64,000 bases of DNA from an uncultured Candidatus Binatia bacterium (GTDB lineage: Bacteria > Desulfobacterota > Binatia > UBA9968 > JAJDTQ01). Positions within the stretch are counted from its first letter, which is position 1, and every line of letters starts with the position of its first letter. Positions 4,807 through 62,767 of this stretch are shown piece by piece. The DNA is taken from the NCBI GenBank assembly GCA_965242525.1, contig OZ251459.1:3353515-3417514 (forward strand), read 5' to 3'. The translations under genes and the position numbers were made by a program. The notes under the pieces are model-generated. The model saw only the letters and a program-made list of their open reading frames with translations. It had not been told where the DNA came from and did not search any database.

Positions 4807-5457
4807 ATGAACAGGCAGAAACGCACCGCCATCTACGGCCGCCTCCGGGAGCGCAACCCCCGTCCCGAGACCGAGCTCGACTGGGTGGATCCTTTCGAGT
4901 TGCTGGTGGCGGTGGTGCTGTCGGCCCAGGCCACGGACGTGGGCGTCAACAAGGCCACCGCGAAGTTGTTCCCGGCGGCCAACACGCCCGAACAGATCCT
5001 CGCGCTGGGGACCGACGGGCTCAAACGCTACATCCGCACCATCGGCCTCTTCAACAGCAAGGCCGAGAACATCATCAAGACCTGCCGCATCCTCATGGAC
5101 CGGCACGCAGGCCAGGTCCCGCGCAGCCGCGAGGCCCTGGAGGCCCTGCCCGGCGTGGGCCGGAAGACCGCCAACGTCATCCTCAACACCGCCTTCGGCC
5201 AACCCACCATCGCGGTGGACACCCACATCTTCCGCGTGGCCAACCGCACCCGCCTGGCCCGCGGCAAGACGCCCCTGGAAGTCGAGCAGCGCCTGACCCG
5301 CCTCACCCCCCCGGAGTTCCGCAAGGACGCCCACCACTGGCTCATCCTCCACGGCCGCTACGTCTGCAAGGCCCGCAAGCCCGAATGCCCCACCTGCTTC
5401 CTCGCCGACCTGTGCGAGTTCCCGGACAAGACGCGAGAACCGGCGTCCGAGCCGTGA
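4807..5457 (+). CDS. nth: Endonuclease III (DNA glycosylase/AP lyase).
   Basis: HhH-GPD motif LPGVGRKTANVILN and C-terminal 4Fe-4S ligands CKARKPECPTCFLADLC. Collinear with the Nth family over its full length. Confidence 0.9.
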   Translation: MNRQKRTAIYGRLRERNPRPETELDWVDPFELLVAVVLSAQATDVGVNKATAKLFPAANTPEQILALGTDGLKRYIRTIGLFNSKAENIIKTCRILMDRHAGQVPRSREALEALPGVGRKTANVILNTAFGQPTIAVDTHIFRVANRTRLARGKTPLEVEQRLTRLTPPEFRKDAHHWLILHGRYVCKARKPECPTCFLADLCEFPDKTREPASEP

Positions 5458-5489
5458 CCGCTACGGGTGGGGTCCGATTTGGAAACGGC

Positions 5490-5783
5490 TCAATCGGAAA
5501 GTGCGCCGAAAAATTTCTCCTTGTTTGAGAACCTCGCTCGATCTTCTTCGGTAGGTGGGTTACTCTGGTAGGGTGGACAGTGGTAGTAGTAGGTCCGCAC
5601 GACGCTTGATCTCGCGGCTATTGCCGAAACGAAAGCCCCATAGTCGATTCGCTGTCTGTTGAAGTGGTCGTCGAGCAGCTTGTCGATGTATCCCCCATCA
5701 AGAAAGACAACCGATCTGTCCACGAGGTGCGTCTCCTGTCGGCACGAAAAGGAGAGGGGTCCCTTGCAGGACCCCTCTCTCAT
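5490..5783 (-). pseudogene. N-terminal fragment (about 95 aa) of a NYN/LabA-like domain protein, probably a gene remnant.
   Basis: VVFLDGGYIDKLL ... VRTYYYHCPPY resembles the first half of the NYN domain (the FIDG.NL and YYY segments). No plausible start codon or RBS; it sits in the nth-hsdR gap. Confidence 0.3.
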
Positions 5784-6052
5784 GAAAAGCCCGACATCCA
5801 GAGTGAACGCCGGGGGGTATAAACAGCGGCGTTTGCACGCCTGAAAGATAAGCTAAACCCACAGGCCGCTCGTGTCAAGACCCAAGGGGCGTCGTCCAGG
5901 ATCTTGAGGTCGCCGGTTCATAGAGGGCGCCCAGCCGTTCGTGGCGAGGTTGTCCGTCTTGGCGCGGTTCTCCGCCACCGTGTTGGATTCCGAGGACTTC
6001 CAAGCTATCCTGCTTTCTCAGTACCGACAGACTACCGCAGTGCTGACCCGCC

Positions 6053-8584
6053 ATGAACGAAGCCACAGCGCGCATCAAGATCAACAGACTGCTGGAAGCG
6101 GCCGGATGGCGGTTCTCCGACGAAGGAGACCATCGGGCCAACATCCGCCTCGAATCCGGCGTCACCATTGAACCGGCCGGTCTCGACGCCCTCGGAGACA
6201 ATTTCGAGAAAACCGCCCAAGGATTCATCGACTTCCTTTTGCTGGACGCCAAGGGATTCCCACTGATCGTTCTGGAGGCCAAGGCCGAGAACAAGAACCC
6301 GCTGGTAGGCAAGGAACAGGCGCGCAGGTACGCCCGCGCGCAGAACTGCCGTTTCGTGATCCTCTCCAACGGCAATCTGCACTACTTCTGGGATCTGGAA
6401 CGCGGCAGCCCATACATCATCACCACGTTCCCCAGGCCGGAGTCGGTAACCGGCTATCGGGAAGTAACGCCCGACCCGCAGCGCTTGGCGGAAGAACGGG
6501 TCAGCGACGACTACATTGTCCTGACCCAGCGCCCCAATTACGCGTCGGAAGCGGCTTGGAAGAGTGAAGCCGAACGCCCCATCTTCATCCGCGCCCATAA
6601 GCTGCGCTTTCTGCGTCCCTACCAACTGAATGCCGTCCTTGCCTTGCAACGCGCGGTCCGGGACGGCAACGACCGCTTTCTGTTCGAGATGGCTACCGGC
6701 ACGGGCAAGACGCTCACTGCAGCCGCGGTCATAAAGCTGTTCCTGCGCTCCCGCAACGCGCGCCGCGTGCTGTTCCTAGTGGACCGTCTGGAGTTGGAGG
6801 ATCAGACCCATAAGGTTTTCACCGCGTTGCTTTCCGTCGACTTCCAGACGGTCATCTACAAGGAGAAGCGCGACGATTGGCGGCGCGCCGAGATCGTCGT
6901 CAGCACGGTCCAATCCCTGCTGTTCAACAACAAGTACCAGCAGCTCTTCTCGCCCACGGATTTCGATCTGGTAATCTCCGACGAGGCGCATCGCTCCATC
7001 GGCGGTAACGCCCGGGCTGTGTTCGATTATTTCGTGGGCTACAAGCTCGGGCTCACCGCGACCCCGCGCGACTACCTGAAGGGTGCAGACCCCCAACGAG
7101 CCGCCAGTCATCCACGGGAGGCTGAGCGCCGGTTGCTGCTGGACACTTACCGTACCTTTGGCTGCGAGAGCGGACAGCCCACCTTTCGCTACTCGCTGTT
7201 GGACGGCGTGAAGGATGGCTACCTGATCAGCCCGACGGTGGTGGATGCGCGCACGGACGTGACCACCCGGCTCCTGTCCGAAGAAGGGTTCGTGGTCTCC
7301 TTCACCGACGAGACGGGCGACGACCGGGATGAGGCATACAGGCAGCGCGAGTTCGAGAAGCGTTTCTTCTCCGAAGCCACCAACCGCTTGTTCTGCAGGA
7401 CCTTCTTGGAGAACGCCTTGCGCGATCCGGTTAGCCGAGAGGTGGGCAAGTCCATCATCTTCGGAGTCAGCCAGAACCATGCCGCCAAGCTCGTCCATAT
7501 CTTCAACGCGATGGCCCATCGCATGTTCCCTGGCAAGTATCAGTCCGACTTCGCCGTGCAGGTGACCTCGCAGATACCGGACGCCCAGCCGTTTACCGTG
7601 AACTTCACCAACAACAACCTGCTGGGCTCGGGCAATTTCCTGCCCACGTACAGGAGCAGCAAGGCCCGTGTCTGTGTTACTGTAGGTATGATGACCACCG
7701 GGTACGACTGTACCGACGTCCTGAACCTTGGCATGTTTCGGCCCATTTTCTCGCCCACCGATTTCGTCCAGATCAAGGGCCGCGGCACCCGCAGGCACCG
7801 GTTCCTCGACCAACTCCACGATCCGGCGCTCGCAGAGAACGTCAGGCAGCCCGAAAAGACCGCCTTCAAGCTCTTTGACTTCTTCGCCAATTGTGAGTAC
7901 TTTGAGGAAGAATACGATTACGACCAGGTCATCGACCTGCCCAAAGCCGTCACGGACAACGGGCCAACCGACGGTGTTGTGGACGGGCCGCACACAGTGT
8001 TGGAAATATACGAGCATTCGGGTCCGGACGACTTGTCAATGGTGAAGGAAGAAACCATCGGCGTCGAGGGCATGAAGATCGACCGCATGTTCTTCGAGCG
8101 GTTCGAGGATACAGTGAAGGAGAATGGATTCATCGCCACGTGCGTCGAAGCCGGGGAGTGGGAGAAAGTGATCGAGTACGTCAACCGGGAAGTCTTCGAC
8201 AAGCCGGAGGAATACTACAGTTTGGACAAGCTTCGCAGAGCCGCGGCGGTGGACCGTCGCCTGACCCTGCGGGAGATCCTTGAAAAGGTCTTCGGCCTCA
8301 TCCCGCGCTTCAAGTCGAGGGACGAGTTGCTGGAGGAGGAGTTCGCCAAGTTCGTCGCCGATTACAAACCCAAAGAGGCGACGGCCATCCCCGCCCTCAA
8401 GACTTACTTCAAAGCGTACGCCACCAGTAACCAGATCCGCGACATCATCGAAAGCCGTAACTACACAGACCTCGCCACCAACCCGGCCTTTTCCACCCGG
8501 GACTTTCGCGCAGTGCCAGAGAGATACCGCGCCATCATCCCGAATTACATCAAGGACTACGTGCCACTGAACCAGTTCGCCTGA
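6053..8584 (+). CDS. hsdR: Type I restriction enzyme R subunit-like: N-terminal PD-(D/E)xK nuclease plus SF2 DEAD/DEAH motor, 843 aa.
   Basis: HSDR_N-type nuclease motif LLDAKGFPLIVLEAKAE. Helicase motifs LRPYQLNAV (Q), MATGTGKT (I), VISDEAHRS (II), LGLTATP (III) and QIKGRGTRR (VI). Confidence 0.8.
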   Translation: MNEATARIKINRLLEAAGWRFSDEGDHRANIRLESGVTIEPAGLDALGDNFEKTAQGFIDFLLLDAKGFPLIVLEAKAENKNPLVGKEQARRYARAQNCRFVILSNGNLHYFWDLERGSPYIITTFPRPESVTGYREVTPDPQRLAEERVSDDYIVLTQRPNYASEAAWKSEAERPIFIRAHKLRFLRPYQLNAVLALQRAVRDGNDRFLFEMATGTGKTLTAAAVIKLFLRSRNARRVLFLVDRLELEDQTHKVFTALLSVDFQTVIYKEKRDDWRRAEIVVSTVQSLLFNNKYQQLFSPTDFDLVISDEAHRSIGGNARAVFDYFVGYKLGLTATPRDYLKGADPQRAASHPREAERRLLLDTYRTFGCESGQPTFRYSLLDGVKDGYLISPTVVDARTDVTTRLLSEEGFVVSFTDETGDDRDEAYRQREFEKRFFSEATNRLFCRTFLENALRDPVSREVGKSIIFGVSQNHAAKLVHIFNAMAHRMFPGKYQSDFAVQVTSQIPDAQPFTVNFTNNNLLGSGNFLPTYRSSKARVCVTVGMMTTGYDCTDVLNLGMFRPIFSPTDFVQIKGRGTRRHRFLDQLHDPALAENVRQPEKTAFKLFDFFANCEYFEEEYDYDQVIDLPKAVTDNGPTDGVVDGPHTVLEIYEHSGPDDLSMVKEETIGVEGMKIDRMFFERFEDTVKENGFIATCVEAGEWEKVIEYVNREVFDKPEEYYSLDKLRRAAAVDRRLTLREILEKVFGLIPRFKSRDELLEEEFAKFVADYKPKEATAIPALKTYFKAYATSNQIRDIIESRNYTDLATNPAFSTRDFRAVPERYRAIIPNYIKDYVPLNQFA

Positions 8585-8603
8585 ATCGTGAGGAGGAACC
8601 GCC

Positions 8604-10451
8604 TTGCTCGACTCCACCACCAAACACCGTATTGACACCGCCCGTGATATCCTCGTGGGCAAGGTGCCTGACCCCAAGAGTCAGGTGGAGCAGATCACCA
8701 TCGCGCTCATCTATAAGTTCATGGACGATATGGACGCCGAAAGCGAGGAGTTGGGAGGACGGCGCAGGTTTTTTGCCAACAGGTTCGCCCGCTACGGCTG
8801 GACGAAGTTGATGCGCTCCGGCCTGGGGGGGCACGAAACCCTGAACCTCTATGCCGAAGCCATCACCCGTATGCCCGAGAACCCCGGCATTCCACCCCTG
8901 TTCCGCAGCATCTTTAACAATGCCTACCTGCCCTACCGCGACCCGGAGACCTTGCGCGCCTTCCTAAAGGTCATCAACGAGTTCACCTATGACCACTCGG
9001 AGCGGCTGGGAGACGCTTTCGAGTACCTGCTGTCCGTCATGGGTTCCCAGGGCGACGCTGGCCAGTTCCGCACCCCGCGCCACATCATCGACTTCATCGT
9101 CGCCATCATCGACCCGAAAAAGGATGAGACTATGCTCGATCCGGCGTGCGGTACCGGAGGTTTCCTCATCTCCTCTTACAAACACATCCTGAAGACCAAC
9201 ACGGACGAGGACGGGAACAGCACTCTCACGCCCGAAGACCGCCGCCGACTCGCCGTCAACTTCAAGGGCTACGATATCTCTCCCGACATGGTGCGCCTCT
9301 CCCTCGTGAATATGTACCTCCACGGCTTCGCCGACCCGCACATCTTGGAGTACGACACCCTCACCAGCCAGGAACACTGGAACGAGTACGCCGACGTCAT
9401 ACTGGCCAACCCCCCTTTCATGTCACCCAAGGGCGGCATCCGCCCACACAACCGGTTTTCGGTCCAGTCCAAGCGTAGCGAAGTCCTGTTCGTGGACTAC
9501 ATGGCCGAGCACTTGAACCCTACTGGCCGAGCCGGAATCATCGTACCCGAAGGCATCATCTTCCAGAGTCAAGGCGCACACACGAAATTGCGCCGGATGC
9601 TGGTAGAGGATTTCCTCGTAGCGGTCATTTCATTGCCAGCCGGCGTGTTCCAGCCCTATTCCGGCGTGAAGACCTCGATCCTGATCCTGGACAAGGCGCT
9701 GGCCAAACGGACAAACCGCATCGCTTTCTTCGGGGTGGAGAACGACGGCTACGATCTAGGAGCACAGCGACGACCGATCGAGGAGAACGACTTGCCACGC
9801 GTAACGGCCGAGATCGTAGAGTATCTGGGCCACTCGCGAACCGATAAATTCCTGAACGCTGCCGAACCGATACGCGCCGGGCAAGTGGCGGAGCCTAGGG
9901 GTACGTATACGACGGTCGAACCGTCCAGAGGCTTTCAACCTAATAGCGGACTCATCGTCGAGAAGGAACAAATCGCCACTCTTGGAGGCTATGGCTTGAA
10001 TGCGGTGCGTTATCAGGAAGGCGACACCCGCAAGAAGAAATCAAAGTGGCCACTTGTGAAAGTTAAGGATGTGTGCCAAGCTATTTTGGGTGGTGGCACT
10101 CCTTCTACGAAAAACGAAGAGTACTGGCAAGGGAAGATTCCTTGGATCACAAGTGCCGACATCGTAAATCTCACGACTGCGAGACCACGTCGATATATCA
10201 CGGAGAAAGCAATAAAGGAATCGGCCACCAACTTGATCCCCAAAGACAATGTGGTAGTTGTAACAAGAGTTGGCCTCGGGAAACTATTCAGGAACAGTTT
10301 TGATATATGTATTAGTCAAGACTCACATGGGTTGATCGTGAAAGATGGAGTCAATGCGGATTATCTGGTACAGATACTGAAAGACAAGGTGAAGGAATTC
10401 AAGAAAAGCAGTCAAGGTTCGACCATACAGGGAGTTACAAAAAGAGACTAG
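8604..10451 (+). CDS. hsdM: Type I R-M HsdM (N6-adenine methyltransferase) fused to a single HsdS-like target-recognition domain. Reading frame is interrupted at 10449.
   Basis: TTG start after a GAGGAGG RBS. HsdM_N region, motif I DPACGTGGFL, motif IV NPPF. The C-terminal ~200 aa (KVKDVCQAILGGGTPSTKNEEYWQGKIPWITSADI...) resembles an HsdS TRD. Confidence 0.8.
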   Translation: MLDSTTKHRIDTARDILVGKVPDPKSQVEQITIALIYKFMDDMDAESEELGGRRRFFANRFARYGWTKLMRSGLGGHETLNLYAEAITRMPENPGIPPLFRSIFNNAYLPYRDPETLRAFLKVINEFTYDHSERLGDAFEYLLSVMGSQGDAGQFRTPRHIIDFIVAIIDPKKDETMLDPACGTGGFLISSYKHILKTNTDEDGNSTLTPEDRRRLAVNFKGYDISPDMVRLSLVNMYLHGFADPHILEYDTLTSQEHWNEYADVILANPPFMSPKGGIRPHNRFSVQSKRSEVLFVDYMAEHLNPTGRAGIIVPEGIIFQSQGAHTKLRRMLVEDFLVAVISLPAGVFQPYSGVKTSILILDKALAKRTNRIAFFGVENDGYDLGAQRRPIEENDLPRVTAEIVEYLGHSRTDKFLNAAEPIRAGQVAEPRGTYTTVEPSRGFQPNSGLIVEKEQIATLGGYGLNAVRYQEGDTRKKKSKWPLVKVKDVCQAILGGGTPSTKNEEYWQGKIPWITSADIVNLTTARPRRYITEKAIKESATNLIPKDNVVVVTRVGLGKLFRNSFDICISQDSHGLIVKDGVNADYLVQILKDKVKEFKKSSQGSTIQGVTKRD

Positions 10452-10607
10452 CCGAAATTGAGATACCTCTTCCTCCGCCGATCGTACAACGAGAAATCGT
10501 AGAAGAGATAGAGAGGTGCCAAAAAGTTATAGACGAGGCATTAGAATTGGTAACGCAGATGAACAGCAAAATAGAGACAACCCTAACGCGAGTGTGGGAA
10601 TCATAGT
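10439..10607 (+). pseudogene. Frameshifted conserved C-terminal segment of HsdS (LAEIEIPLPPPIVQREIVEEIERCQKVIDEALELVTQMNSKIETTLTRVWES). An A5 tract at 10439-10443 separates the two frames.
   Basis: Frame 2 downstream of the TAG at 10449 encodes the canonical HsdS 'IPLPPLxEQ' conserved region. One extra A in the A5 run would fuse it in frame, giving ...STIQGVTKKRLAEIEIPLPP... Confidence 0.6.
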
Positions 10608-10610
10608 TTT

Positions 10611-12278
10611 ATGAGAGAGAATCAAATGTATTGGGATATTCCGCAAATTGTCGGCGAGCCGCTGCATATACCTATCACTGGCGGCGACCGGATTTTCATC
10701 GTAGGTCCCAACGGTTCGGGAAAATCAGCGTTGATTCAGCACTTTGTCTCGTTACATGGGTCTCAGAATCAGCCTCAGGAAATCCAACGTATTGCAGCGC
10801 ATAGGCAGACATGGCTTACTTCGGGAAGCATTGATGTTACACCGAAGAAACGCAGACAGTTTGATGAAATCTTTAAGACATATGAAACCGATCCTGCCTC
10901 ACGATGGATGGATAGGAGTCCGCACGAGAGACAGTCAGCGGTGCTCTTTGATTTGGTTGCGCAAGAGAATGATCGAGCCCGTCGCATTACTCGTCAAGTT
11001 GACGATGGAAAGGAGTGTGAAGCGAAACGAATCGCTGCTAGAACAACATCTCCTTTCGCTCGACTCAACGATCTATTACAATGTGGAATGTTGACAATCA
11101 CACTTGAAGATTCGCTTGGGGAAGAGATACTGGCTCGGCATCGAGGTACGGAAACCTCCTTCAGCATGGCGCAGATGTCGGATGGGGAACGAAATGCTGC
11201 TATTATTGCCGCTAATGTATTGACTGTGAAACCTGATACTATATTGTTAATCGATGAACCGGAGCGGCATTTGCACAGGTCGATTATTGAGCCTTTTCTT
11301 TCTGCCGTGTTTGAACAACGACAAGACTGTGCGTTCATCATTTCGACACATGAGCTCGCCCTGCCGATTGCCAATCCAAGAGCACAAGTTCTTATGGTTC
11401 GATCATGTAGATGGGGGGCGGATACTGCAGAAGCGTGGGATGCGCAACTTCTCAAAGCAAGTCCGGAACTACCGGAAGATCTGAAACGCTTGATCCTGGG
11501 TGCTCGAAGGAGAATTTTGTTTGTCGAGGGCACCTCAGGCAGCTTAGACCTACCACTTTATACTACTCTATTCCCGAAGGTCTCCGTGGTGTCGCAGGGG
11601 AGTTGTACTGATCTCCTAAGGGCCGTAAAAGGCTTGCGAGAGACTACAAACCTGCATCACGTCGAGGCATTTGGTCTTATTGACCGGGATAACCGCGGAG
11701 AGGATGAGGTTAAACAATTGTTTGATAATGGAGTGTTTGCTCTCGAAGTGTACTCAGTGGAAGCGCTTTACTATTCTCTGGACGCTATTGAAGCGGTGGC
11801 TCGTTGGCAAGCGAATTCATTCAGGTGCAGCGCCGATGAGATGATCGCGTCTGTGAAAGAGGAAGCATTGCGTGTCTTGGAGGAAAGCGATTTGGCAGAA
11901 AGAATGGCAGCACGACGAAGTGCCGGTCGGATACATGCTGAATTATTGTCACAAATGCCTGATTGGAAATACATCAGAGACCATAGGGGTAGCAGATTCA
12001 AAGTTTCCGTGGAGTCTCCGTACTCAGAGGAACTGGAGCATTTTCGCAAACTTGTTGCCGAAAAGAGATTGGATGAACTCGTCGCACGCTATCCGTTACG
12101 CGAGAGTCGTCTATTCAATACCATTGCCAACGCTTTGAAGTGTCGTTACAGAAGTGACTACGAGCAGATGGTGCTTTCCCGGCTTAGAGACGCCGAGAAT
12201 CTGGCTCAGAAGCTGAAACAACGCGTCGGCCCTCTCGCGACGGAGCTTGAGCGGGCTACCTCCCGGGAAGCAGGCTGA
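10611..12278 (+). CDS. ABC-type ATPase fused to a DUF4435/TOPRIM-like domain: an OLD-family or fused AriA-AriB (PARIS)-like defence protein.
   Basis: Walker A GPNGSGKS, signature-like MSDGER, Walker B/H ILLIDEPERHLH. C-terminal half has TOPRIM-type acidic motifs ILFVEGTSGSLD and FGLIDRDNRGEDE. About 44% GC against a ~69% background, and begins four nucleotides after the hsdS end. Confidence 0.65.
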   Translation: MRENQMYWDIPQIVGEPLHIPITGGDRIFIVGPNGSGKSALIQHFVSLHGSQNQPQEIQRIAAHRQTWLTSGSIDVTPKKRRQFDEIFKTYETDPASRWMDRSPHERQSAVLFDLVAQENDRARRITRQVDDGKECEAKRIAARTTSPFARLNDLLQCGMLTITLEDSLGEEILARHRGTETSFSMAQMSDGERNAAIIAANVLTVKPDTILLIDEPERHLHRSIIEPFLSAVFEQRQDCAFIISTHELALPIANPRAQVLMVRSCRWGADTAEAWDAQLLKASPELPEDLKRLILGARRRILFVEGTSGSLDLPLYTTLFPKVSVVSQGSCTDLLRAVKGLRETTNLHHVEAFGLIDRDNRGEDEVKQLFDNGVFALEVYSVEALYYSLDAIEAVARWQANSFRCSADEMIASVKEEALRVLEESDLAERMAARRSAGRIHAELLSQMPDWKYIRDHRGSRFKVSVESPYSEELEHFRKLVAEKRLDELVARYPLRESRLFNTIANALKCRYRSDYEQMVLSRLRDAENLAQKLKQRVGPLATELERATSREAG

Positions 12279-12368
12279 ATCAATGGGCTCTTCCGGCTTT
12301 CGTGTGGGTAGGGATAGGGAGGAAAGGGGGGGTGAGACAGGGTAGAGGGAGCGGCAAGGGAGGGAGCA

Positions 12369-12650
12369 ATGCGCTACGTCGCGCTCATCCACGGTGGTGA
12401 CGGTTCCGGTTTCGGCATCAGCTTCCCCGACTTTCCCGGATATGCGTCGGATGGCGACACCGTGGAGGAAGCCTTCCACCGCGGCGCCGAGGCGCTGGCC
12501 TTTCACATCGAGGGCATGATCGAGGACGGAGAAACCATCCCGGAACCGCTCGGCGTCCAGGAGGTCAGGGCCGATCCGAGCCTTGCGGAATGGCGGGAGG
12601 GCGCGGACGTGGCCTTCGTTCCTCTCGTCCTCGACAAGGGTTCCCCGTGA
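12369..12650 (+). CDS. HicB-family (UPF0150) antitoxin-like protein; an orphan copy.
   Basis: MRYVALIHGGDGSGFGISFPDFPGYASDGDTVEEAFHRGAEALAFHIE is the HicB N-terminal RNase-H-like fold signature. Confidence 0.6.
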   Translation: MRYVALIHGGDGSGFGISFPDFPGYASDGDTVEEAFHRGAEALAFHIEGMIEDGETIPEPLGVQEVRADPSLAEWREGADVAFVPLVLDKGSP

Positions 12651-12712
12651 CGTGTCCGCGTCTCTCTGGATTACGGTTCGCTGCAGGCCATCCACAAAGG
12701 GCACTCATGGCC

Positions 12713-12901
12713 TCATTTGAGTACTTCCACCCCAAGGTCCCTGCATATCTTCTTCGCTAGGATGTCCTTTATCTCGGAATGCCGTGGAATCGCGGAACGC
12801 TTGTTCAAAGCAGGGTTGTGCCACCACGAATGCTTGCGGCCTTCCCGCAGGAGGTCACACCCCCGGCTTCGTAGATACTGCAAGAGTTCGTTTCTCTTCA
12901 C
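12713..12901 (-). CDS. hicA: HicA mRNA interferase toxin, 62 aa.
   Basis: MKRNELLQYLRSRGCDLLREGRKHSWWHNP...IPRHSEIKD matches the HicA dsRBD-like architecture (conserved G..H, P.H). Confidence 0.7.
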   Translation of the reverse strand: MKRNELLQYLRSRGCDLLREGRKHSWWHNPALNKRSAIPRHSEIKDILAKKICRDLGVEVLK

Positions 12902-13110
12902 AGGGTGACGGTTTCTTCCCTGAAGTCACTTCCCGCCGCCTTCAGGGCATCCCGCCGGTTGAATTCCAGTGCTTCCCGGAGCGTTACCGCCAAGGTGTCC
13001 ATCAACTCTTCATGGGTCCTTTCCTGGCAGTTCACTCCGGGCACTTCTTCGATCCATCCCAGCCACCAGTCGCCTTCCTGCTTGACGACGGCGGTATATT
13101 CCTTTTCCAT
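12898..13110 (-). CDS. hicB: HicB antitoxin; overlaps the hicA start by 4 nt.
   Basis: MEKEYTAVVKQEGDWWLGWIEEVPGVNCQERTHEELMDTLAVTLREALEF is HicB/UPF0150. The upstream in-frame Met at 13218 lacks an RBS. Confidence 0.6.
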   Translation of the reverse strand: MEKEYTAVVKQEGDWWLGWIEEVPGVNCQERTHEELMDTLAVTLREALEFNRRDALKAAGSDFREETVTL

Positions 13111-13263
13111 GGTGGTTGCCTCCGTACCAGGCCCCGTGATGCGGTCGGCTGCGCCGAAGCGGGTTTTCAGGTGCTGCCGGTCTGAGGGTTCAAGTCTATA
13201 CTGTCGGTCCGGGATCATGCAACGTCGCTGTCGTTCTGCCTATTTCACGACACGCTCCCGCAC

Positions 13264-14652
13264 TCACCTGAGCACGCTCATCACCGCACGTGCGTCCACC
13301 ACGTGGACGCCGGCGCGGGTGCGCGGAGCAGCGCCTCCCGGGACGAACAGCGCATGGCAGACTTCGGCGTTCCCGACATGGGGCAGGTTTCGGAGGGCGG
13401 CAAGGGCGCCGGCTCCGGACGGGGCGGCCGGCTTCACGGACCACTTGACTTCGCCCACCAGCAGCCGCCGGCCGTCCACCGAGAACGCGACGACGTCCAG
13501 TTCCGGCTCATGGCCCCGCCAGTACCTTTGCGCGGGCTCCCACGGGCCGAGTTCCGCCAGCCTGGTATCGGAGCGGTGCAGCAGGGGTACGGCCATGCGG
13601 CACAACTCTTCCCAGGCCAGGGACTCCAGGCCGGGGCAGTGCCGGTTCCAGTAGCGCAACCGCGTCTCCCGAGGCGCCGCGGCAAGGGCGGCCCGGTGGG
13701 GGGCGACCACCCGGAACCACAGCCGGAGAAAGGGGTCGTCGATCCGGTAGAGGCTTCGCTTGCCCGACTTCGGGTCGCTCCCGAAGGGCGTCTCGCGGCG
13801 CACGAACCCCATCTCCATCAGGGACGCCAGGGGCTTCGACAAGCCGGATGCGGGTTTGCCCAGACGGCTTGCGACCTCGCTGACCCGATGCGCGCCGTTG
13901 CCGATGACGTCCAGCACCGGGCGTAACGCAGTAGCCGGGGGCGTTTCCTCCCGCAGCAACCGGTCGGGCTCTCCATGCAGCGGTCCTGCAGGGTCGAGGA
14001 CCAGGGCGTCCACCGCAGCGTCGCAATCGTCTCCGAAGGGTTCGGCCAGCTCCCAATAGCGGGGCATCCCGCCCCACAGCGCATACGCGGAGACCAGGGC
14101 GCGGAGGTCGTCGAAGGGAAAGACCCGGGCAAGGTGTCCCGGTTGCAGCGGGCGCACGGCAAAGGCTTCCGCGGCCCGGCCGTACAGGGGCGCGGCGGCG
14201 TCGAGGATGGCGCTGCGCATCATGTGCTGGCTCGACCCGCAGACCACCAGCTTCAGCCGACGCTCCGGGCGGTCCAGCCAGTTCTGCAGGACGCCGGCCA
14301 GAGCAGGGTCCGCGTCGAGGAGGTAGGGCAGTTCGTCGAGTACGAACGGCCCCTGCCAGCCGGCCCGCTGGGCCTCCGCGTCGAGCCGCGTCAGGAACGA
14401 GCGCCAGTCCGGGTATTCGACGTCGGCAAAGCCGGGGAACCGTTCGGCGACCGCTCCGGCCAGGTAGCGCCGCTGCACCGGAGGCGCGGACTGGTCGGCC
14501 ACCGCGTAGAGGCCGTCGTGACGCCGGGTCCACTCGATGAGCAGGCGTGACTTGCCGACCCTGCGGCGCCCCCGGACGACGGCGAAGGCCCCGGGCCGCA
14601 AGAGCACGCGGTCCAGTCGGCGCATCTCTTCCGCGCGGTCGAGGAACTGCAT
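13264..14652 (-). CDS. Archaeal-type AAA+ ATPase with a DUF234 C-terminal domain (an 'ATP-binding protein' common in defence islands).
   Basis: MQFLDRAEEMRRLDRVLL...VVRGRRRVGKSRLL (Walker A); DUF234-like C-terminus. The true ATG is at 14652; the track's 14745 start is a high-GC extension. Confidence 0.6.
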   Translation of the reverse strand: MQFLDRAEEMRRLDRVLLRPGAFAVVRGRRRVGKSRLLIEWTRRHDGLYAVADQSAPPVQRRYLAGAVAERFPGFADVEYPDWRSFLTRLDAEAQRAGWQGPFVLDELPYLLDADPALAGVLQNWLDRPERRLKLVVCGSSQHMMRSAILDAAAPLYGRAAEAFAVRPLQPGHLARVFPFDDLRALVSAYALWGGMPRYWELAEPFGDDCDAAVDALVLDPAGPLHGEPDRLLREETPPATALRPVLDVIGNGAHRVSEVASRLGKPASGLSKPLASLMEMGFVRRETPFGSDPKSGKRSLYRIDDPFLRLWFRVVAPHRAALAAAPRETRLRYWNRHCPGLESLAWEELCRMAVPLLHRSDTRLAELGPWEPAQRYWRGHEPELDVVAFSVDGRRLLVGEVKWSVKPAAPSGAGALAALRNLPHVGNAEVCHALFVPGGAAPRTRAGVHVVDARAVMSVLR

Positions 14653-14791
14653 GGAACTATTATGTGGGTCGGTATTATGCCTGTCAACATAACCTCTGGA
14701 TACGCGCCGGCGGCAGCGAACTCCGCTCGACTTGGGGATTGACACGCCGCCGCCTCATCGCCTACCTTTGTCGCCGAACGCCAATCGTCCC

Positions 14792-14842
14792 CGTTCGTCC
14801 TGAGCGTAGCGAAGCGAAGTCGAAGGACGCGCTTCCCCGCGG
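14792..14842. repeat. RepA dispersed repeat, about 45 bp (CCCCGTTCGTCCTGAGCGTAGCGAAGCGAAGTCGAAGGACGCGC).
   Basis: Near-identical copies at 18641-18680, 18863-18901 (inverted), 19170-19212, 44726-44815 (two copies), 46142-46190 (inverted) and 55381-55430 (inverted). Confidence 0.85.
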
Positions 14843-18599: not shown

Positions 18600-19230
18600 C
18601 CCCGACCCTCCCGTCCCCGGTTCGTCCTCGTCCCCGTTCGTCCCGAGCGTAGCGAAGCAAAGGAACCTCTGAAAAATGGCTCTTCCGGCTTTCGTGTGGG
18701 TAAGGTAGAAGGGAAAGGGAAGCGACATCTCCGCGGACACTCACCCCGTCATTCCCGCAAACGCCCCACCCTCCGTCATTCCCGCGAAAGCGGGAATCCA
18801 TCCACTTTCCTCGCTCTCGTTGTACAAACGGAACCCCTGAACAATCGGATAGAGGCAAGGCCCGTCCTTCGACTCCGCTACGCTACGCTCAGGACGAACG
18901 GAAATAGGGGCGTCAGGGTGAGGGAATCCATCCTGTATGTCTCGATTGTTCAGAGGCCCCAAACCCTCATACAGGGCGCCCACGGAGTTTGCTCGCAAGG
19001 TCTGGATTCCCGCTTTCGCGGGAATGACGTGAAGGGGCTTTCGCGGGAATGACGAGGCAGGGCTTTCACGGGGAGGATGAAATGGGGAGTGTCGCAACCC
19101 ACACGAATTCCGGAAGCGCCTGAAAAATCGAGACATGGAGCATGGGTTCCTTCACCCTGACCCCTATCTCCGTTCGTCCTGAGCGTAGCGAAGCGAAGTC
19201 GAAGGACGCGCTCATGCTCCCCCTGTCCCG
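18600..19230. repeat. A 630-bp intergenic mosaic of REP/MITE-like repeats: RepA x3, the palindromic RepB hairpin GGATTCCCGCTTTCGCGGGAATGAC with 23-bp tandem derivatives, and RepC GGCTCTTCCGGCTTTCGTGTGGGTA with its inverse CCCACACGAATTCCGGAAGCGCC.
   Basis: The same motifs recur at 12284-12310, 23940-23975, 35556-35582, 38460-38700 and 39305-39490. Track ORFs 18696..19052 and 18741..19136 are just translations of these repeats. Confidence 0.85.
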
Positions 19231-19242
19231 ATTGCGCGACGG

Positions 19243-20226
19243 TCAGGCGGGTTGGCTGGCCAGCGTCCGGCGCACCGCGGCAACGATGTCGTCCTTGCCC
19301 GGCACGAACCGGCCCTCCAGGGGCGGGGAGCAGGGGACCGGCGCGTTGGGCGCGGCGACCCGGAGGATCGGAGCGTCCAGGTAGTAGAGGGCTTGCTCCT
19401 GGACCCGGGCGGCGACCTCGGCGCCGACGCCGCCCTGCTCCACCGCCTCGTGGGCCACGATGAGCCTCGACGTCTTCCTCACCGAGTCCACCAGGGTCTC
19501 CACGTCCAGCGGCGCCAGACTGCGGAGGTCGATGACCTCCACGGAGACGCCTTCCCCGGCCAGCGCTTCGGCCGCTTCCAGGGCCGGCGCGACCATGTGG
19601 GAGAGCGCGGCCACGGTGGCATCGGCGCCGGACCGGAGCACCGCGGCCTTGCCCAAAGGCAGGCTGCCGCGGTCCTCCGGGACCGGCCCGCGGGAGAAGT
19701 AGAGGCCCCGGTGCTCGATGAACAGCACCGGGTTGTCGTCGCGGACCGCGGCCTTCAGCAGCCCTTCGGCGTCCGCGGGACTCGACGGCATGACCGCCTT
19801 CAGGCCGGGCACGTGCAGGAACCACGACTCCAGGCTCTGGGAATGGTGCGCGCCCATGTTGCCCTTGACCCCGCACTGGACCCGCACGGTCAGGGGCACT
19901 TTCAGTTGTCCGCCCGACATGTAGTGCAGCTTGGCCGCGTGGTTCACGAGCTGGTCCATGGCCAGCGTGATGAAGTCCACGAACATGACCTCCACCACCG
20001 GACGCAGCCCGGACAGGGCCGCGCCGACGGCGATGCCCATGACCGCGCCTTCGCTGATGGGAGTGTTCACCACGCGGTGGCCGCCCAGTTCCTCGGCGAT
20101 GCCCCGGGTGACCCCGAACGGTCCTCCCAGGGCCACGTCCTCGCCAAAGACGTACACCGATGCGTCCCGCCTCATCTCCGCCAGCAACCCCGCGCGGACC
20201 GCTTCCAGGTAGCTCATTTCCGGCAT
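19243..20226 (-). CDS. Alpha-keto acid (pyruvate/acetoin) dehydrogenase E1 component, beta subunit.
   Basis: Transketolase-like pyrimidine-binding and C-terminal domains (MSYLEAVRAGL..., FGEDVALGGPFGVT). ATG at 20226 has a GAGGT RBS. Confidence 0.8.
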   Translation of the reverse strand: MPEMSYLEAVRAGLLAEMRRDASVYVFGEDVALGGPFGVTRGIAEELGGHRVVNTPISEGAVMGIAVGAALSGLRPVVEVMFVDFITLAMDQLVNHAAKLHYMSGGQLKVPLTVRVQCGVKGNMGAHHSQSLESWFLHVPGLKAVMPSSPADAEGLLKAAVRDDNPVLFIEHRGLYFSRGPVPEDRGSLPLGKAAVLRSGADATVAALSHMVAPALEAAEALAGEGVSVEVIDLRSLAPLDVETLVDSVRKTSRLIVAHEAVEQGGVGAEVAARVQEQALYYLDAPILRVAAPNAPVPCSPPLEGRFVPGKDDIVAAVRRTLASQPA

Positions 20227-20233
20227 ACGGACC

Positions 20234-21226
20234 TCAAGCATAGACTTGGGTTGCGGCCTCCCGGGGCTTGGGCCAGGGAGACGAAAGGGCGAACCGCGCG
20301 GCTTCCTCCACCAGCGCCCGGGCGTCGCTCTCCGCCTCCTCCAGGTCCTTCGGGGAAGCGGCTTTCCTCCGCTTCAGGACGCGGGTGAAGCGGGCGATGG
20401 GGTCCTTCTTCTTCCAGTCGGCCAGCCGAGACAGCTCCCGGTACTTGCCGGGGTCGCCCTCGTAGTGCCCCCGGAGACGGTAGGTCAGGCATTCGACGAA
20501 CGCGGGACCCTTGCCCCCGCGGGCGCCGCGCACCGCCCGGTCCAGGGCGCCGCGCACCGCCAGGACATCGTTGCCGTCCACGGTGGCCGCGGAGATGTCG
20601 TAGGTCTCCGCATGCCGGGCGAGCCGCTCCACCCGCGTGTGGGCGGACAGCGGCGTGAACTCGGCGTAGCCGTTGTTCTCGCACACGAAGACCACCGGAA
20701 GCCGCCACAGGCTGGCGATGTTCAGGGACTCGTGGAAGGGGCCGGCCTGGCCGGCGCCGTCGCCGAAGAACACCACCGCCACCCGCCCGGCGCCCTTCTC
20801 CCGGGCCGCGAAGGCCGCGCCCAGGGCCAGCGGCGCCGTGCCCGCCACCACGCCGCTGGCGGTGACGAACCCGGACTCCGCGGCCGCCACGTGCATGGAC
20901 CCGCCCTTGCCGCGGCAATAGCCGGTGGCCCTCCCGGCGAGTTCGGCCATGAGCCGGTTCACGTCCGCGCCCTTGGCGATGGCGTGCCCGTGGGACCGGT
21001 GGCCGCCGAAGACCGTGTCCTCCCGGTCGAGCACGCTGCACGCCCCCACCGCCACCGCCTCCTGCCCGATGCCGAGATGGAGCAGGCCCACGATCTCCCG
21101 GGCCGCGTAGAGCGCGGACACCTTCTCCTCGAAGGCGCGGATCACCCACATGCGCCGGAGCAGCGACACCAGGTCCCGGTCACCGTCCCGGCGCGCCGCG
21201 GAACGCCCTTGCCCGGTTGCCTTCAT
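20234..21226 (-). CDS. TPP-dependent dehydrogenase E1 component, alpha subunit.
   Basis: TPP-binding motif GDGAGQAGPFHESLNIA...NNGYA, and the typical AcoA/PdhA fold. Confidence 0.8.
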   Translation of the reverse strand: MKATGQGRSAARRDGDRDLVSLLRRMWVIRAFEEKVSALYAAREIVGLLHLGIGQEAVAVGACSVLDREDTVFGGHRSHGHAIAKGADVNRLMAELAGRATGYCRGKGGSMHVAAAESGFVTASGVVAGTAPLALGAAFAAREKGAGRVAVVFFGDGAGQAGPFHESLNIASLWRLPVVFVCENNGYAEFTPLSAHTRVERLARHAETYDISAATVDGNDVLAVRGALDRAVRGARGGKGPAFVECLTYRLRGHYEGDPGKYRELSRLADWKKKDPIARFTRVLKRRKAASPKDLEEAESDARALVEEAARFALSSPWPKPREAATQVYA

Positions 21227-23850: not shown

Positions 23851-24042
23851 GATGCTAAGGTTAGCCAGGCTAGGAGCCTGTCCGAGTAAGGAATCCTGGA
23901 TTCCAGGTCAAGCCTAGAATGACCGGACGGAACTTCTCCCGTCATTCCCGCGAAAGCGGGAATCCAGAGGAAGCGAGCCCCACTTCCCCGTGGCGGGTCG
24001 CTTCCCTTTCATCGTGTTCCATTTTATTTCTCCTTCCCCCTT

Positions 24043-24069
24043 TTCATTGGCTACTTCGCCAAGTATAAT
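24043..24069 (+). promoter_or_regulatory. Candidate sigma70-type promoter (TTCATT-N15-TATAAT) for the low-GC cassette.
   Basis: Perfect TATAAT at 24064-24069, 77 nt upstream of the XRE gene ATG; the -35 is weak. Confidence 0.3.
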
Positions 24070-24145
24070 CTGTCTCAAGGGTAAAGCATGCCCTAACCGA
24101 TGTCAATACCCGACAGTTTATTTTTGTCGAACTCGACATTAAAGG

Positions 24146-24496
24146 ATGCTTGCTCTGTCTGAAATCTTTCAACAACGTTTAAGGGCTGCTAGGGGTACAC
24201 GCGAATGGAGCCAAAGCGATTTGGCTAAACGCGCGGGTTTGCCGCCTAGCTCGATTGCCCATTTTGAAACCGGACCGCGCAAGCCGTCTTTCGAAACCCT
24301 GCGTCGCTTGGCTAATGCCCTAGAAGTTACGACCGATTATCTTCTAGGGAGAGTCGAAGATCCAGGTCTTGCCGAATCAGGAGATCCGCTCTTCCGTGAT
24401 ATTGGCAACCTGACCGGCAGTGATCGCGACCTAGCGAGAGACTTCCTCAAAATGTTGACGGAACGCAGTTCGGCTAAGCAAGGGAGGATCAAATGA
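24146..24496 (+). CDS. XRE-family helix-turn-helix transcriptional regulator.
   Basis: HTH_XRE signature WSQSDLAKRAGLPPSSIAHFETG; AAAGGA RBS; about 50% GC. Confidence 0.8.
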   Translation: MLALSEIFQQRLRAARGTREWSQSDLAKRAGLPPSSIAHFETGPRKPSFETLRRLANALEVTTDYLLGRVEDPGLAESGDPLFRDIGNLTGSDRDLARDFLKMLTERSSAKQGRIK

Positions 24497-24708
24497 ATGT
24501 GCCCTTGGTTTAGAGTTAGCCAAAAGGATGGGGGGAGCTATCCAGGGTTTTGAAATTCAACCTTGCCCGTCACCTCTCTTGAAATGGCAGGACTCCACGA
24601 TATCGTCTGGAGCCGAAACTCGGCATCGCCACAGGGGTGTCAGGAATGCTGTCTGTACTGGGAAGTCATTTGCTGAGCAGATCGTTACCGCTATAACGGA
24701 GTCATCAA

Positions 24709-25578
24709 ATGGCTACGGGAAAAAGCTCGACTGTCTATCGCGCCCTTAGCTTGGGTGCGGGAGCGCAGAGTTCTGTTTTAGCACTCCTGCTATCTCGATC
24801 CGACCCCCATTTAGCTAAGCTTGGGTATCACAAGCCCAATGCCGCCATCTTCGCTGATACCGGATGGGAACCTGAGTATGTGTATCGTCATTTGGACTGG
24901 CTTGAGGGACAGCTTCGGTATCCGCTGATCCGAGTGTCCGAAGGCAATCTGAGGACTAACCTTAAACAGGCCCGCACTGTGTCAGGTCATCGTTTTGTTG
25001 ATGTCCCCTTATTCATAGTCGATGGGGACGGCAGGAAAGGGATGTTACGCCGACAGTGCACCACTCACTACAAAATCAGGCCGATTTATCGACAGATCCG
25101 AAAGCTTGCCGGAGGACAGCCTAGTCGACCGTTCCCCAAGGACACCCATGCTGAAATATGGCTCGGGATTTCGCTGGACGAGGTCGGCCGCATGAAGCCG
25201 AGCAAGGAACCGTGGGTAGAACATCGATGGCCGCTGGTGGACATCGGCATGACACGTCAAGATTGTATCGAATGGTTTCAGTCTGAGTATCCAGACCGCC
25301 ATCTACCTCGGTCGGCCTGCGTCATTTGCCCGTATCGTTCAGACAAACATTGGTTGGAATTGAAACGACATGAACCTACTAGCTACAAAGAGGCTGTGCA
25401 ATTCGACCGCTGGCTCCGAAGAAGCACCGAGACACCTCTACGCAAACTGCTGAACGGTCGCCCATATCTGCATTCGGCTCGGCGACCCCTCGCCAGCGTC
25501 ATGAAGGAACGGAAGACGGAAGACGTGGGCGATATAAATAACTTCAACAATGAATGCGAGGGTCTCTGTGGTGTCTGA
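24709..25578 (+). CDS. PAPS reductase / PP-loop ATP-pyrophosphatase-like protein (DndC/CysH-like fold). First gene of the 4-gene cassette.
   Basis: N-terminal degenerate PP-loop YRALSLGAGAQSSVLALL. C-terminal Cys-rich segments CTTHYKIRP and CVICPYRSDKHW. GGAG RBS. Confidence 0.5.
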   Translation: MATGKSSTVYRALSLGAGAQSSVLALLLSRSDPHLAKLGYHKPNAAIFADTGWEPEYVYRHLDWLEGQLRYPLIRVSEGNLRTNLKQARTVSGHRFVDVPLFIVDGDGRKGMLRRQCTTHYKIRPIYRQIRKLAGGQPSRPFPKDTHAEIWLGISLDEVGRMKPSKEPWVEHRWPLVDIGMTRQDCIEWFQSEYPDRHLPRSACVICPYRSDKHWLELKRHEPTSYKEAVQFDRWLRRSTETPLRKLLNGRPYLHSARRPLASVMKERKTEDVGDINNFNNECEGLCGV

Positions 25579-29519: not shown

Positions 29520-29596
29520 AATCGATCCTCTTCCGATTCTCCTCGTGCACGGTCCGCATGTCCACTCCTATCGAAGGGGCTCATACCAAGAGATCC

Positions 29597-45863: not shown

Positions 45864-45939
<76 letters not shown>

Positions 45940-58948: not shown

Positions 58949-59131
58949 TCAAAAAACGAACCAGAGAACGAACGCCCGAAAATCTACGTCACGTCTCGCG
59001 GTGAACGGTACGTCAAGGCCGAGGAGTTGCTCACAAGCAAACGCGGGCGAGAGGCGCTTGAAAGGATGGCAGCGTTTGCGAAAGAACTCCGCGCCTCGAA
59101 GTCTCCACCGAAAAGGGACGACGATCGTTAA
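58949..59131 (+). CDS. Small hypothetical protein in an AT-rich islet.
   Basis: MSKNEPENERPKIYVTSRGERYV... in a ~50% GC region. Start chosen at the internal Met with GGGGGG upstream. Confidence 0.3.
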   Translation, partial: SKNEPENERPKIYVTSRGERYVKAEELLTSKRGREALERMAAFAKELRASKSPPKRDDDR

Positions 59132-59161
59132 CACCCCTACGGACCACGGCAGGTATTTGGT

Positions 59162-62665: not shown

Positions 62666-62767
62666 TCAAGCGAGGTGTATCGTGAGGCTTGCCCCTCCGC
62701 CTGATACGACAACGGAGAAGGTGCTCAACAAGATTGCCGAGTTGGAATAAAGGAAAAGGAGACAAAC

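Follow-up and report, generated by a model that had tools for sequence, protein, structure and literature searches.

PARIS is an anti-phage system triggered by Ocr, an inhibitor of Type I restriction-modification (R-M) enzymes (PMC9122126, PMC11464382). Its activation leads to tRNA cleavage and growth arrest. Merged forms, in which ATPase and nuclease make up a single AriAB protein, have been documented (PMC9122126), and two clades have been described (PMC11464382). PARIS and PrrC have both been termed guardians of R-M (PMC12707154), RloB has been found in Type I loci (PMC12065111), and PARIS-like modules have been reported within BREX loci (PMC12839542). Here, we analyzed a stretch of 64,000 nucleotides from an uncultured Candidatus Binatia bacterium (assembly GCA_965242525.1, contig OZ251459.1, positions 3,353,515 to 3,417,514 of the forward strand), which we refer to as the window. 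Next to the endonuclease III gene nth, it carries Type I R-M genes followed by a fused ariAB gene and by hic toxin-antitoxin genes. We propose that this interval is a chromosomal defense hotspot, in which conserved anchors enclose swapped cargo, here a Type I R-M and AriAB guardian cassette with hic genes, and we put the probability of this reading at about 80%.

Every component of the locus is of a known kind (Type I R-M, merged PARIS, HicAB, PDC-S27 and NYN). The guardian logic and the turnover of hotspots have likewise been described before, and current concepts are left unchanged by this locus. What is new are three particulars: a clade of AriAB that is habitually joined to hsdS or hsdMS, a recurrent frameshift in a fusion of hsdM with half an hsdS, and a recombination tract over the recognition and ATPase parts. 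The locus also offers a natural example of layered immunity in one operon, with a PARIS-type guardian placed 3' of the specificity gene of a Type I R-M system.

Variable cargo between nth and a DUF234 ATPase gene

The genes of the interval are the following (aa, amino acids; TRD, target recognition domain; CR, conserved region; ORF, open reading frame).

4807..5457, plus strand: nth, endonuclease III (Pfam HhH-GPD, 6e-25; EndIII_4Fe-2S), the conserved left flank
5490..5726, minus strand: N-terminal remnant of an NYN protein, 78 codons of about 190 (profile, and Pfam NYN of the full-length homologues)
6053..8584, plus strand: hsdR, 843 aa, HSDR_N nuclease and ResIII/SF2 motor (Pfam, PADLOC, NCBIfam)
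8604..10451, plus strand: fusion of hsdM with a single-TRD hsdS, 615-aa ORF (Pfam N6_Mtase and Methylase_S)
10442..10606, plus strand: C-terminal conserved helix (CR) of HsdS, in the -1 frame relative to the TRD
10626..12278, plus strand: ariAB, 550 aa, OLD-type ABC ATPase (residues ~1-285) and DUF4435/TOPRIM (Pfam, PADLOC)
12369..12650, plus strand: orphan hicB-like gene, 93 aa, here called hicB93 (Pfam HicB_lk_antitox, 1.1e-18)
12713..12901, minus strand: hicA toxin gene, 62 aa (Pfam HicA_toxin PF07927, 3.6e-7, 30.6 bits, cutoff 27)
12898..13110, minus strand: small HicB/UPF0150-like antitoxin gene, 70 aa, here called hicB70 (Pfam UPF0150-like, weak, E=0.033)
13264..14652, minus strand: DUF234 ATPase gene, 462 aa, with an ATPase_2 AAA+ domain, a winged helix and DUF234 of the PD-(D/E)XK superfamily (Pfam, PADLOC)

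All the genes that an initial annotation had named here from the letters alone are present: scans with Pfam, PADLOC and NCBIfam recovered them directly except for the NYN remnant, which was confirmed indirectly, and PADLOC models matched hsdR, hsdM/S, AriAB and the DUF234 ATPase.

That annotation had also described a defense island of about 9 kb with lower GC content. In a 500-nucleotide (nt) sliding profile of the window, GC content was 68 to 75% up to position 5,250, 57 to 62% from 5,250 to 10,000, 44 to 50% from 10,000 to 12,250 and 58 to 63% from 12,250 to 13,250, after which it returned to about 70%. The composition is therefore strongly heterogeneous, both by window and by gene, and the lower GC content was confirmed. 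Its extent was not: the low-GC tract covers 5,460 to 13,250, between flanks of about 70%, stops before the DUF234 gene and is made of several strata. By gene, GC content was 68.4% in nth and 68.0% in the bicupin gene, compared to 59.5% in hsdR, 58.4% in the hsdM part, 43.8% in TRD plus CR and 49.4% in ariAB. GC content at third codon positions (GC3) was 0.94 in nth, in the MFS gene and in the bicupin gene, 0.77 to 0.80 in hsdR and the hsdM part, 0.45 to 0.47 in the hsdS TRD, the CR tail and ariAB, 0.54 in the NYN fragment, 0.65 to 0.79 in the hic genes and 0.84 in the DUF234 gene. Rather than one 9-kb insert, the island is a mosaic that comprises at least four layers of composition.

We then compared the locus with related genomes. 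A genome scan with nth as the query led to one syntenic relative (L001, 86% nt identity), a metagenome-assembled genome labelled Candidatus Binatia. Two others, L083 and L170, come from the PANK22-1 metagenomes and were reached via the contexts of AriAB and NYN-fragment homologues. The nt identity of nth was 98.6% to L170, 96% to L083 and 86% to L001. The interval that follows nth differs in all three. L001 has a CoA-transferase gene only, and then the bicupin gene. In L083, whose flanks are 94 to 96% identical, nth is followed by 157 bp, half an hsdS, ariAB, hicB93, hicA, hicB70 and DUF234; window positions 5462-10053 are missing, and the genes to the right of DUF234 are different ones. In L170 (flanks 97% identical), nth is followed by the segment with the NYN fragment, a 148-aa ORF, an rve fragment, the C-terminal fragment of a Type III methyltransferase, a SIR2 protein, Phd, part of hicB70, a copy of a repetitive extragenic palindromic (REP)-like repeat, DUF234 and the bicupin gene. 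Gene order in this interval is thus not conserved in the clade, as the island claim required. Judged by these arrangements, the exchangeable cargo of the window spans approximately 5883-12924, and DUF234 and bicupin belong to the flank. The DUF234 ATPase had been counted as cargo, which did not hold: the gene is host-like in composition (70% GC) and is kept at 95% nt identity in L170 and 93% in L083, next to different cargo.

Together, the atypical composition, the clustering of defense systems and the cargo that differs between relatives support the defense-island reading. The gene nth with the NYN-remnant segment serves as the conserved left anchor and the small hicB gene with the DUF234 ATPase gene as the right one. 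The cargo between them has been exchanged. We propose that recombination between homologous anchors is the most likely route, because no site-specific machinery is present. Conserved anchors, atypical GC content and cargo that differs in close relatives are features shared with described defense islands and hotspots (the concept of Makarova et al. 2011; P2/P4 hotspots, PMC9122126). Unlike the P2/P4-type hotspots, however, the window has no phage, satellite or integrase framework, and its anchors are nth and the DUF234 ATPase gene.

An AriAB clade joined to Type I specificity genes

The genes hsdR, hsdM::half-hsdS and ariAB are arranged like an operon, with intergenic gaps of 19 to 20 nt, and are followed by the hic genes. 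This cassette recurs in unrelated genomes, with identities of 68 to 71% for HsdR, 77% for HsdM and 60% for AriAB. Among the AriAB relatives with more than 52% identity, hsdS or hsdMS lay directly upstream in 6 of 8 contexts (the window, L083, L087, L089, L091 and L092, but not L081 and L085). In L087, the order is hsdM-hsdS-ariAB; no base separates the hsdS stop from the start of ariAB, and hsdR follows at a distance. L089 has hsdR and, beyond it, hsdMS-ariAB. In L091 and L092, hsdS-ariAB is found, and in L092 hsdR follows.

This linkage did not extend to AriAB as a whole. In a metagenome scan of wider relatives (33 to 54% identity, mostly 33 to 45%), only 3 of 39 upstream ORFs contained Methylase_S, and we rejected hsdS linkage as a trait of the entire family. 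Two of these three are the L091 and L092 cases, and the third fits L099 (41% identity; hsdM further upstream). Linkage to hsdS characterizes this closer AriAB clade and not merged AriAB genes in general. Downstream of the AriAB relatives, no recurrent partner was found. A plasmid search with AriAB returned only genes for an "AAA family ATPase" with 31 to 36% identity, which are uninformative for this clade.

The same hsdR-hsdMS cassette was also found with other additions at the position of ariAB. In L172 and L089, an AAA_15 and DUF3226 pair holds this place, likewise as restriction-linked ORFs. In L173, the cassette is followed by a HicB-like gene whose product is 37% identical to that of hicB93. 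NYN genes lie a few genes away from the cassette in L089 and L172.

Several of these cassettes are damaged. In L089, the N-terminal piece of hsdM is duplicated (1989-2351) and a Fic gene stands between hsdR and hsdMS. In L173, two insertion sequence (IS) copies (DDE_Tnp_1; 5296-6609 and 8732-10045) split the S part. L172 carries a 184-aa hsdM stump at 6396-6950.

In L081 (264-4035), whose genome has the REP family of the window, an AriAB allele with 84% nt identity occupies another place in the chromosome. The order there is a 535-aa AAA_15 ATPase (PD-T4-4_A-like, 6.5e-36), a 93-aa ORF, AriAB and enolase, from which it follows that ariAB also moves without hsdS.

The position of ariAB resembles that of PrrC (EcoprrI) and of RloA, RloB and RloC, in which the coding sequence for an ABC-type ATPase with a nuclease lies within a Type I hsd operon or closes it. 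These guardians are expected to act once restriction is blocked, and the same would be expected of AriAB. In contrast to PrrC, its predicted effector is a DUF4435/TOPRIM domain and not an anticodon-nuclease domain, and unlike PrrC and the Rlo proteins, its gene remains in L083 where hsdR and hsdM are gone. The tie to hsdS predicts that this clade responds to inhibitors of Type I enzymes, and the three-gene cassette makes compact material for testing the guardian idea.

A merged AriAB of the PARIS type

The ariAB gene starts 19 nt past the hsdS stop codon, and its 550-aa product is identical in sequence to the protein P0001. The ATPase part matched Pfam AAA_21 (2.8e-16, 60.9 bits, cutoff 27) and ABC_tran (3.9e-9), and residues 302-398 matched DUF4435 (5.4e-8, 33.3 bits, cutoff 27). 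The PADLOC AriAB model PDLC02982 matched at 3e-53, with residues 180-535 aligned to model positions 210-556 of 570. Walker A and B, the TOPRIM glutamate (E301) and the DxD motif (D353, D355) were invariant in 32 AriAB homologues. Based on architecture and model match, we classify the protein as a predicted merged AriAB of the PARIS type.

Structural searches were less specific. The AlphaFold2 model had an overall confidence (pLDDT) of 75.9, with low values in the TOPRIM region (46 to 73). Foldseek returned SMC, PtuA, GajA and OLD heads at E values of about 1e-7 and TM scores of 0.2 to 0.34. As these are generic ABC-head matches at low TM that do not separate PARIS from OLD or GajA, we discarded the fold search as a discriminator. 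In the Protein Data Bank, phmmer with AriAB found neither AriA nor AriB at E<=0.001, and the C-terminal half did not find AriB at E<=10.

Like PARIS, this protein combines an AAA_21/OLD-type ABC ATPase with a DUF4435/TOPRIM domain, on one polypeptide and with the catalytic motifs kept, and its gene adjoins a Type I R-M system, the very system whose inhibitor Ocr triggers PARIS. It is only remotely similar in sequence to the two-gene PARIS of E. coli B185, however, and its ATPase part has approximately 285 residues, compared to 464 in AriA. Because of this, much of the coiled coil and of the trigger-binding scaffold of AriA would be missing. Furthermore, the nuclease is fused and cannot be released, and the AriB-release step does not apply to a protein whose ATPase and nuclease are one polypeptide. 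We thus hypothesize that activation would be conformational or by oligomerization, similar to OLD or GajA. In our model, the Type I enzyme would form the first layer of defense. Behind it, AriAB would stand guard as a second line, sensing anti-restriction proteins of phages in the way that PARIS senses Ocr, and its TOPRIM nuclease would stop translation as an abortive-infection backup.

Type I genes and a frameshift in hsdS

The Type I genes had been annotated as an R-M system. HsdR stood up well. It matched Pfam ResIII (1.9e-36) and HSDR_N (1.3e-6), PADLOC REase_I (6e-56) and, below the curated cutoff, the NCBIfam EcoAI/FtnUII-family R subunit (1.5e-62). It shares 71% identity with its L172 counterpart, end to end and collinear over 843 aa, and 68% identity with that of L089 over the C-terminal third. 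By these comparisons, hsdR is apparently intact and full length.

The gene that follows encodes HsdM (approximately 8604-10055) fused to one TRD (10056-10448). The fusion matched Pfam N6_Mtase (9.9e-51) and Methylase_S (3e-16) as well as the PADLOC models MTase_I PDLC03021 (5.3e-95) and Specificity_I (2e-29), and GC3 falls from 0.77 to 0.47 at the junction of M and TRD. In its M part, the protein shares 77% identity with an 825-aa M-S fusion of L089 that has two TRDs and two CRs, indicating that the fusion is native to this family. M-S fusions are also found in L173 (603 aa) and in the fragments P0127 and P0128.

The hsdM part thus held up, whereas HsdS is neither canonical nor fully intact: it has a single TRD, this TRD is fused to HsdM, and the CR is out of frame. 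After ...STIQGVTKRD, the frame meets a TAG at 10449-10451 that was created by the frameshift. The CR (KRLAEIEIPLPPPIVQREIVEEIE...RVWES) is read in the -1 frame up to 10606, and joining it to the TRD needs a -1 shift at an A5 run at 10439-10443. It aligns unbroken with intact half-HsdS homologues and with both CRs of L089, and half-size HsdS homologues (65 to 69% identity, 185 to 311 aa) continue through the TAG point in frame. The predicted junction peptide of a -1-shifted product is GVTKKRLAEIEIPLPPP. In an alternative reconstruction, where the base was lost in the following leucine codon and not in the A run, it is GVTKRDLAEIEIPLPPP.

HsdS gives DNA recognition for methylation and restriction alike, and a frameshift in S is therefore a safe way to turn the whole system off. 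With its CR out of frame, the specificity module as sequenced has no dimerization helix. The break at the poly-A run suggests that the R-M system is at present probably off or decaying. A half-HsdS with one TRD and one helix, such as that of NgoAV, is expected to dimerize and to read a symmetric site. The protein studied here shares the single TRD and the single conserved helix with half-size, phase-variable HsdS proteins, and also the homopolymer at the truncation point, but differs from NgoAV in that the TRD is fused to the C terminus of HsdM and the helix is out of frame.

The L083 allele has an equivalent -1 shift at an A6 run. A shift at the same run in two alleles that are separated by a synonymous divergence (dS) of 0.75 to 0.96 could mean that the site is a switch: either the poly-A run phase-varies the R-M system, or a -1 ribosomal or transcriptional slip yields some full-length M-half-S. 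The CR tail, when compared between the window and L083, is constrained in its own frame (proportion of differing synonymous sites 0.54 versus 0.15 for nonsynonymous sites, Fisher p=1.2e-5), while this asymmetry is lacking in the other two frames, which contain stop codons. This frame-specific constraint implies that, for most of the time over which the two alleles diverged, the tail was translated. Homopolymer runs of at least 5 nt number only three in each allele, and before the slip the site would have been the longest or joint-longest of them. With so few runs and the longest one affected, independent slippage resembling phase variation is a reasonable explanation. The same count also speaks against a switch, since independent events would hit the same run in roughly 1 of 3 cases. 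Moreover, a canonical slippery heptamer (X XXY YYZ) is absent from both alleles, runs of A5 to A6 are short for transcriptional slippage, the gene caller called no half-hsdS gene in L083, and the alternative reconstruction moves the lost base out of the A run. We therefore consider a switch possible but doubtful.

A recombination tract across hsdS and ariAB

Identity between the window and L083 varies along the shared block. It is 90 to 92% at 10,080-10,214, drops to 61 to 88% from 10,215 to about 11,560, rises to 88 to 98% at 11,565-12,284 and stays at about 90 to 100% in most sliding windows through the hic genes and DUF234. Synonymous divergence and the ratio of nonsynonymous to synonymous divergence (dN/dS) between the window and L083 were as follows.

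3' half of the TRD: dS 0.75, dN/dS 0.11
CR tail: dS 0.96, dN/dS 0.17
AriAB residues 1-312: dS 0.49-0.74, dN/dS 0.14-0.44
AriAB residues 313-550: dS 0.13, dN/dS 0.34
Flanking genes (MFS, nth): dS 0.08-0.15, dN/dS 0.31-0.35

Over the tract 10,215-11,560, dS thus amounts to 0.5-0.96, compared to 0.08-0.16 for the flanks. This mosaic of dS indicates that in one of the two lineages a diverged allele has replaced the 3' half of the TRD, the CR helix and AriAB up to about residue 310. Within AriAB, the replacement took in the ATPase, reached the beginning of the TOPRIM domain and left residues 313-550 untouched. Such an allelic replacement fits selection on the recognition parts. For the whole of AriAB, dN/dS was 0.29; it was 0.14 for hicA, 0.03 for hicB70 and 0.23 for DUF234 (0.18 to 0.23 over the two relatives). 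ariAB, hicA, hicB70 and DUF234 are under purifying selection.

A more adventurous view of this block would be that half-HsdS and AriAB form a self-contained decoy-guardian unit, similar to Ronin or PrrC, in which half-S is made by a tolerated or programmed -1 shift and, together with AriAB, detects DNA-mimic anti-restriction proteins. It would explain why the parts of the block travel and recombine together, why the block persists in L083 without hsdR and hsdM, and why both halves of the split HsdS are under purifying selection in two diverged alleles. Ronin itself consists of HsdS and HsdM without HsdR, plus RonA (bioRxiv 10.1101/2023.04.06.535777), and L083 likewise keeps a piece of hsdS beside a putative abortive-infection effector after losing the nuclease subunit. 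Unlike Ronin, however, L083 also lacks hsdM, its hsdS piece carries a frameshift and received no gene call, and its effector is a 550-aa ATPase-nuclease, compared to the 61-aa membrane peptide RonA. We regard the decoy-guardian unit as very unlikely.

Weighing the hotspot against decay and single insertion

Several points weigh against a functional hotspot. The comparison rests on a small sample of three related genomes. The frameshift in HsdS shows that part of the island is decaying, and the truncated NYN gene is a further mark of decay. AriAB persists in L083 without hsdR and hsdM, indicating that it does not strictly need R-M. Its resemblance to E. coli PARIS is remote as well: the AriAB family profile matched AriA (8ux9_B) at E=0.0038 over only 63 residues of the signature and Walker B region, and AriB was not among the matches listed for this profile. 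In view of this remote similarity, trigger and target may differ from those of PARIS. Finally, searches around the island found no direct or inverted repeats bracketing it, no tRNA lies within 15 kb of it, and a Pfam scan detected no integrase domain among its proteins, so that the exchange mechanism can be deduced only indirectly.

The signs of decay could also mean that the interval acts as a sink where incoming DNA is tolerated and mostly decays, and that the genes cluster because insertion is harmless there and not because they cooperate. Besides the HsdS frameshift and the NYN ORF of 78 out of ~190 codons, the dN/dS of 0.77 in hicB93, the loss of hsdR and hsdM in L083, the rve and Type III methyltransferase fragments in L170, and the disrupted hsdM and IS insertions that this cassette shows in L172 and L173 would all fit. 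However, hsdR, the hsdM part and ariAB are full length and free of internal stops, the products of ariAB, hicA, hicB70 and DUF234 are under purifying selection, and the adjacency of hsdS and ariAB recurs in unrelated genomes. A mere sink for DNA is, in our opinion, a tentative explanation that is rather unlikely.

The same missing repeats, tRNA and integrase argue against a single integrative mobile element, such as a genomic island or satellite, that would have inserted beside nth and brought everything at once. A contiguous low-GC tract and the rve-family fragment at the same site in L170 would be expected of such an element. Its cargo should not, however, fall into at least four GC3 strata (0.54, 0.77-0.80, 0.45-0.47 and 0.65-0.79), nor be shared among relatives as sub-blocks in differing combinations, nor carry a recombination tract inside hsdS-ariAB. 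We find one insertion hardly credible and retain the hotspot with swapped cargo.

The hic genes, the DUF234 ATPase and dispersed repeats

The stop of hicB70 overlaps the start of hicA by 4 nt, and hicB70 is called as a 70-aa gene in L083 too. The two products would form a functional toxin-antitoxin pair with a stabilizing or abortive role. The product of hicB93 has the antitoxin fold without a DNA-binding tail, and there is no hicA on the same strand. Considering its dN/dS of 0.77, hicB93 may be a leftover.

The DUF234 protein matched Pfam ATPase_2 (1.5e-9), DUF234 (2e-8) and HTH_IclR (1e-4). DUF234 has been placed in the PD-(D/E)XK superfamily (PMC3424549). The start of the gene (MQFLDR) was fixed by comparison with L170, and a promoter-like site of its own lies at 14687-14659. 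It had been proposed as a candidate for an undescribed function; it turned out to be already catalogued, since residues 32-436 matched PADLOC PDC-S27 (PDLC04985, 1.6e-24), with which it shares the ATPase_2, winged-helix and DUF234 architecture. PDC-S27 is itself a computational candidate only. Here, the gene is stable across relatives and acts as a resident gene. It may be an older, resident candidate defense gene.

Two dispersed repeats are located near these genes.

12286..12308, plus strand: copy of a dispersed 23-mer repeat, GGCTCTTCCGGCTTTCGTGTGGG, with a purine-rich tract behind it, located upstream of the orphan hicB gene
14797..14828, plus strand: copy of a 32-nt REP-like dispersed repeat, GTCCTGAGCGTAGCGAAGCGAAGTCGAAGGAC

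Each had 6 matches in the window where 0 were expected, and both are genuine dispersed repeats. They had been read as the borders of the island, which they are not: they belong to different families, none is found at the left edge, and no pair bounds the island. The REP-like repeat is also present in L081, L083 and L170, and in L170 this repeat is found at the opposite end of the DUF234 gene.

The 23-mer repeat occurs at 12286, 18678, 19098, 35576, 38490, 38666 and 39461, often with a purine-rich tract behind it. Twice it forms inverted pairs 150 to 400 bp apart, like a miniature inverted-repeat transposable element, and once, upstream of the orphan hicB gene, it stands alone.

The left flank and the NYN remnant

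One further feature was noted on the left side, immediately upstream of the NYN remnant.

5752..5779, minus strand: terminator-like element, a 12-bp GC-rich hairpin followed by a T run

The NYN assignment could be confirmed only indirectly. The remnant itself matched Pfam NYN at just E=0.13 and had no NCBIfam match, a word-indexed homologue search with it returned just two relatives, equally short, and it gave no pairwise alignment with the NYN protein of L172. A profile search against the Protein Data Bank had no match. In an exhaustive HMMER search, a profile built from the three fragments matched 223 proteins at E<1e-10, many of them of about 190 aa and matched over their first ~75 residues. 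Pfam NYN was above cutoff in 7 of 8 tested profile matches (1e-11 to 5e-15). In the full-length homologues, NYN spans residues 4 to ~170, with a complete domain of ~145 profile positions; the window retains the first ~75 residues only, about 40% of the protein. The fragment had been put forward as a candidate for an undescribed function. As a dead remnant of 78 codons, it does not qualify, and it would best be seen as a leftover.

The remnant lies within a 404-bp segment (5479-5882) common to the window and L170. L171, a contig of the same metagenome series, has a second copy of this segment at 327-738 (89% nt identity) together with a 53-bp piece of nth (1114-1166), beside secA. Judged by this copy, the nth-NYN junction has been duplicated or moved.

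L001 has an insert of its own upstream of nth (6,700-10,000, 52 to 62% GC), where the window has just 124 bp. Genes for an ornithine cyclodeaminase-like protein and for a HEPN_Swt1 protein are found in this insert, indicating that foreign DNA is accepted on both sides of nth in this lineage.

Other features of the window

A second, larger low-GC island (23,900-30,000, 49 to 58% GC) ends beside a predicted tRNA-Ala(GGC) gene (30308-30382, minus strand, ARAGORN). It has four co-directional genes, which encode a 289-aa SspD-like protein with no Pfam match, a 422-aa SF2 helicase (PbeA-like), a 627-aa GHKL ATPase (HATPase_c_3, MzaB-like) and a 285-aa PLD nuclease (DrmC-like). This set has no clean fit to one named defense system and may be more unusual than the island next to nth.

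Positions 18,629-21,226 are absent from L170, the closest relative. Dispersed repeats cluster in the first ~600 nt of this segment (59 to 60% GC), where no convincing ORF is present. Among them are inverted copies of the 32-nt REP-like repeat (18864, minus strand, and 19176, plus strand) and of the second family (18678, plus strand, and 19098, minus strand).

An 82-nt "tRNA-Asn" with anticodon ATT called by ARAGORN at 46752-46833 is probably false; an Rfam scan of the window at gathering thresholds gave only a tRNA-Thr at 45864. Further stretches of 58% GC are located at 59,000-60,000 and 62,000-64,000.

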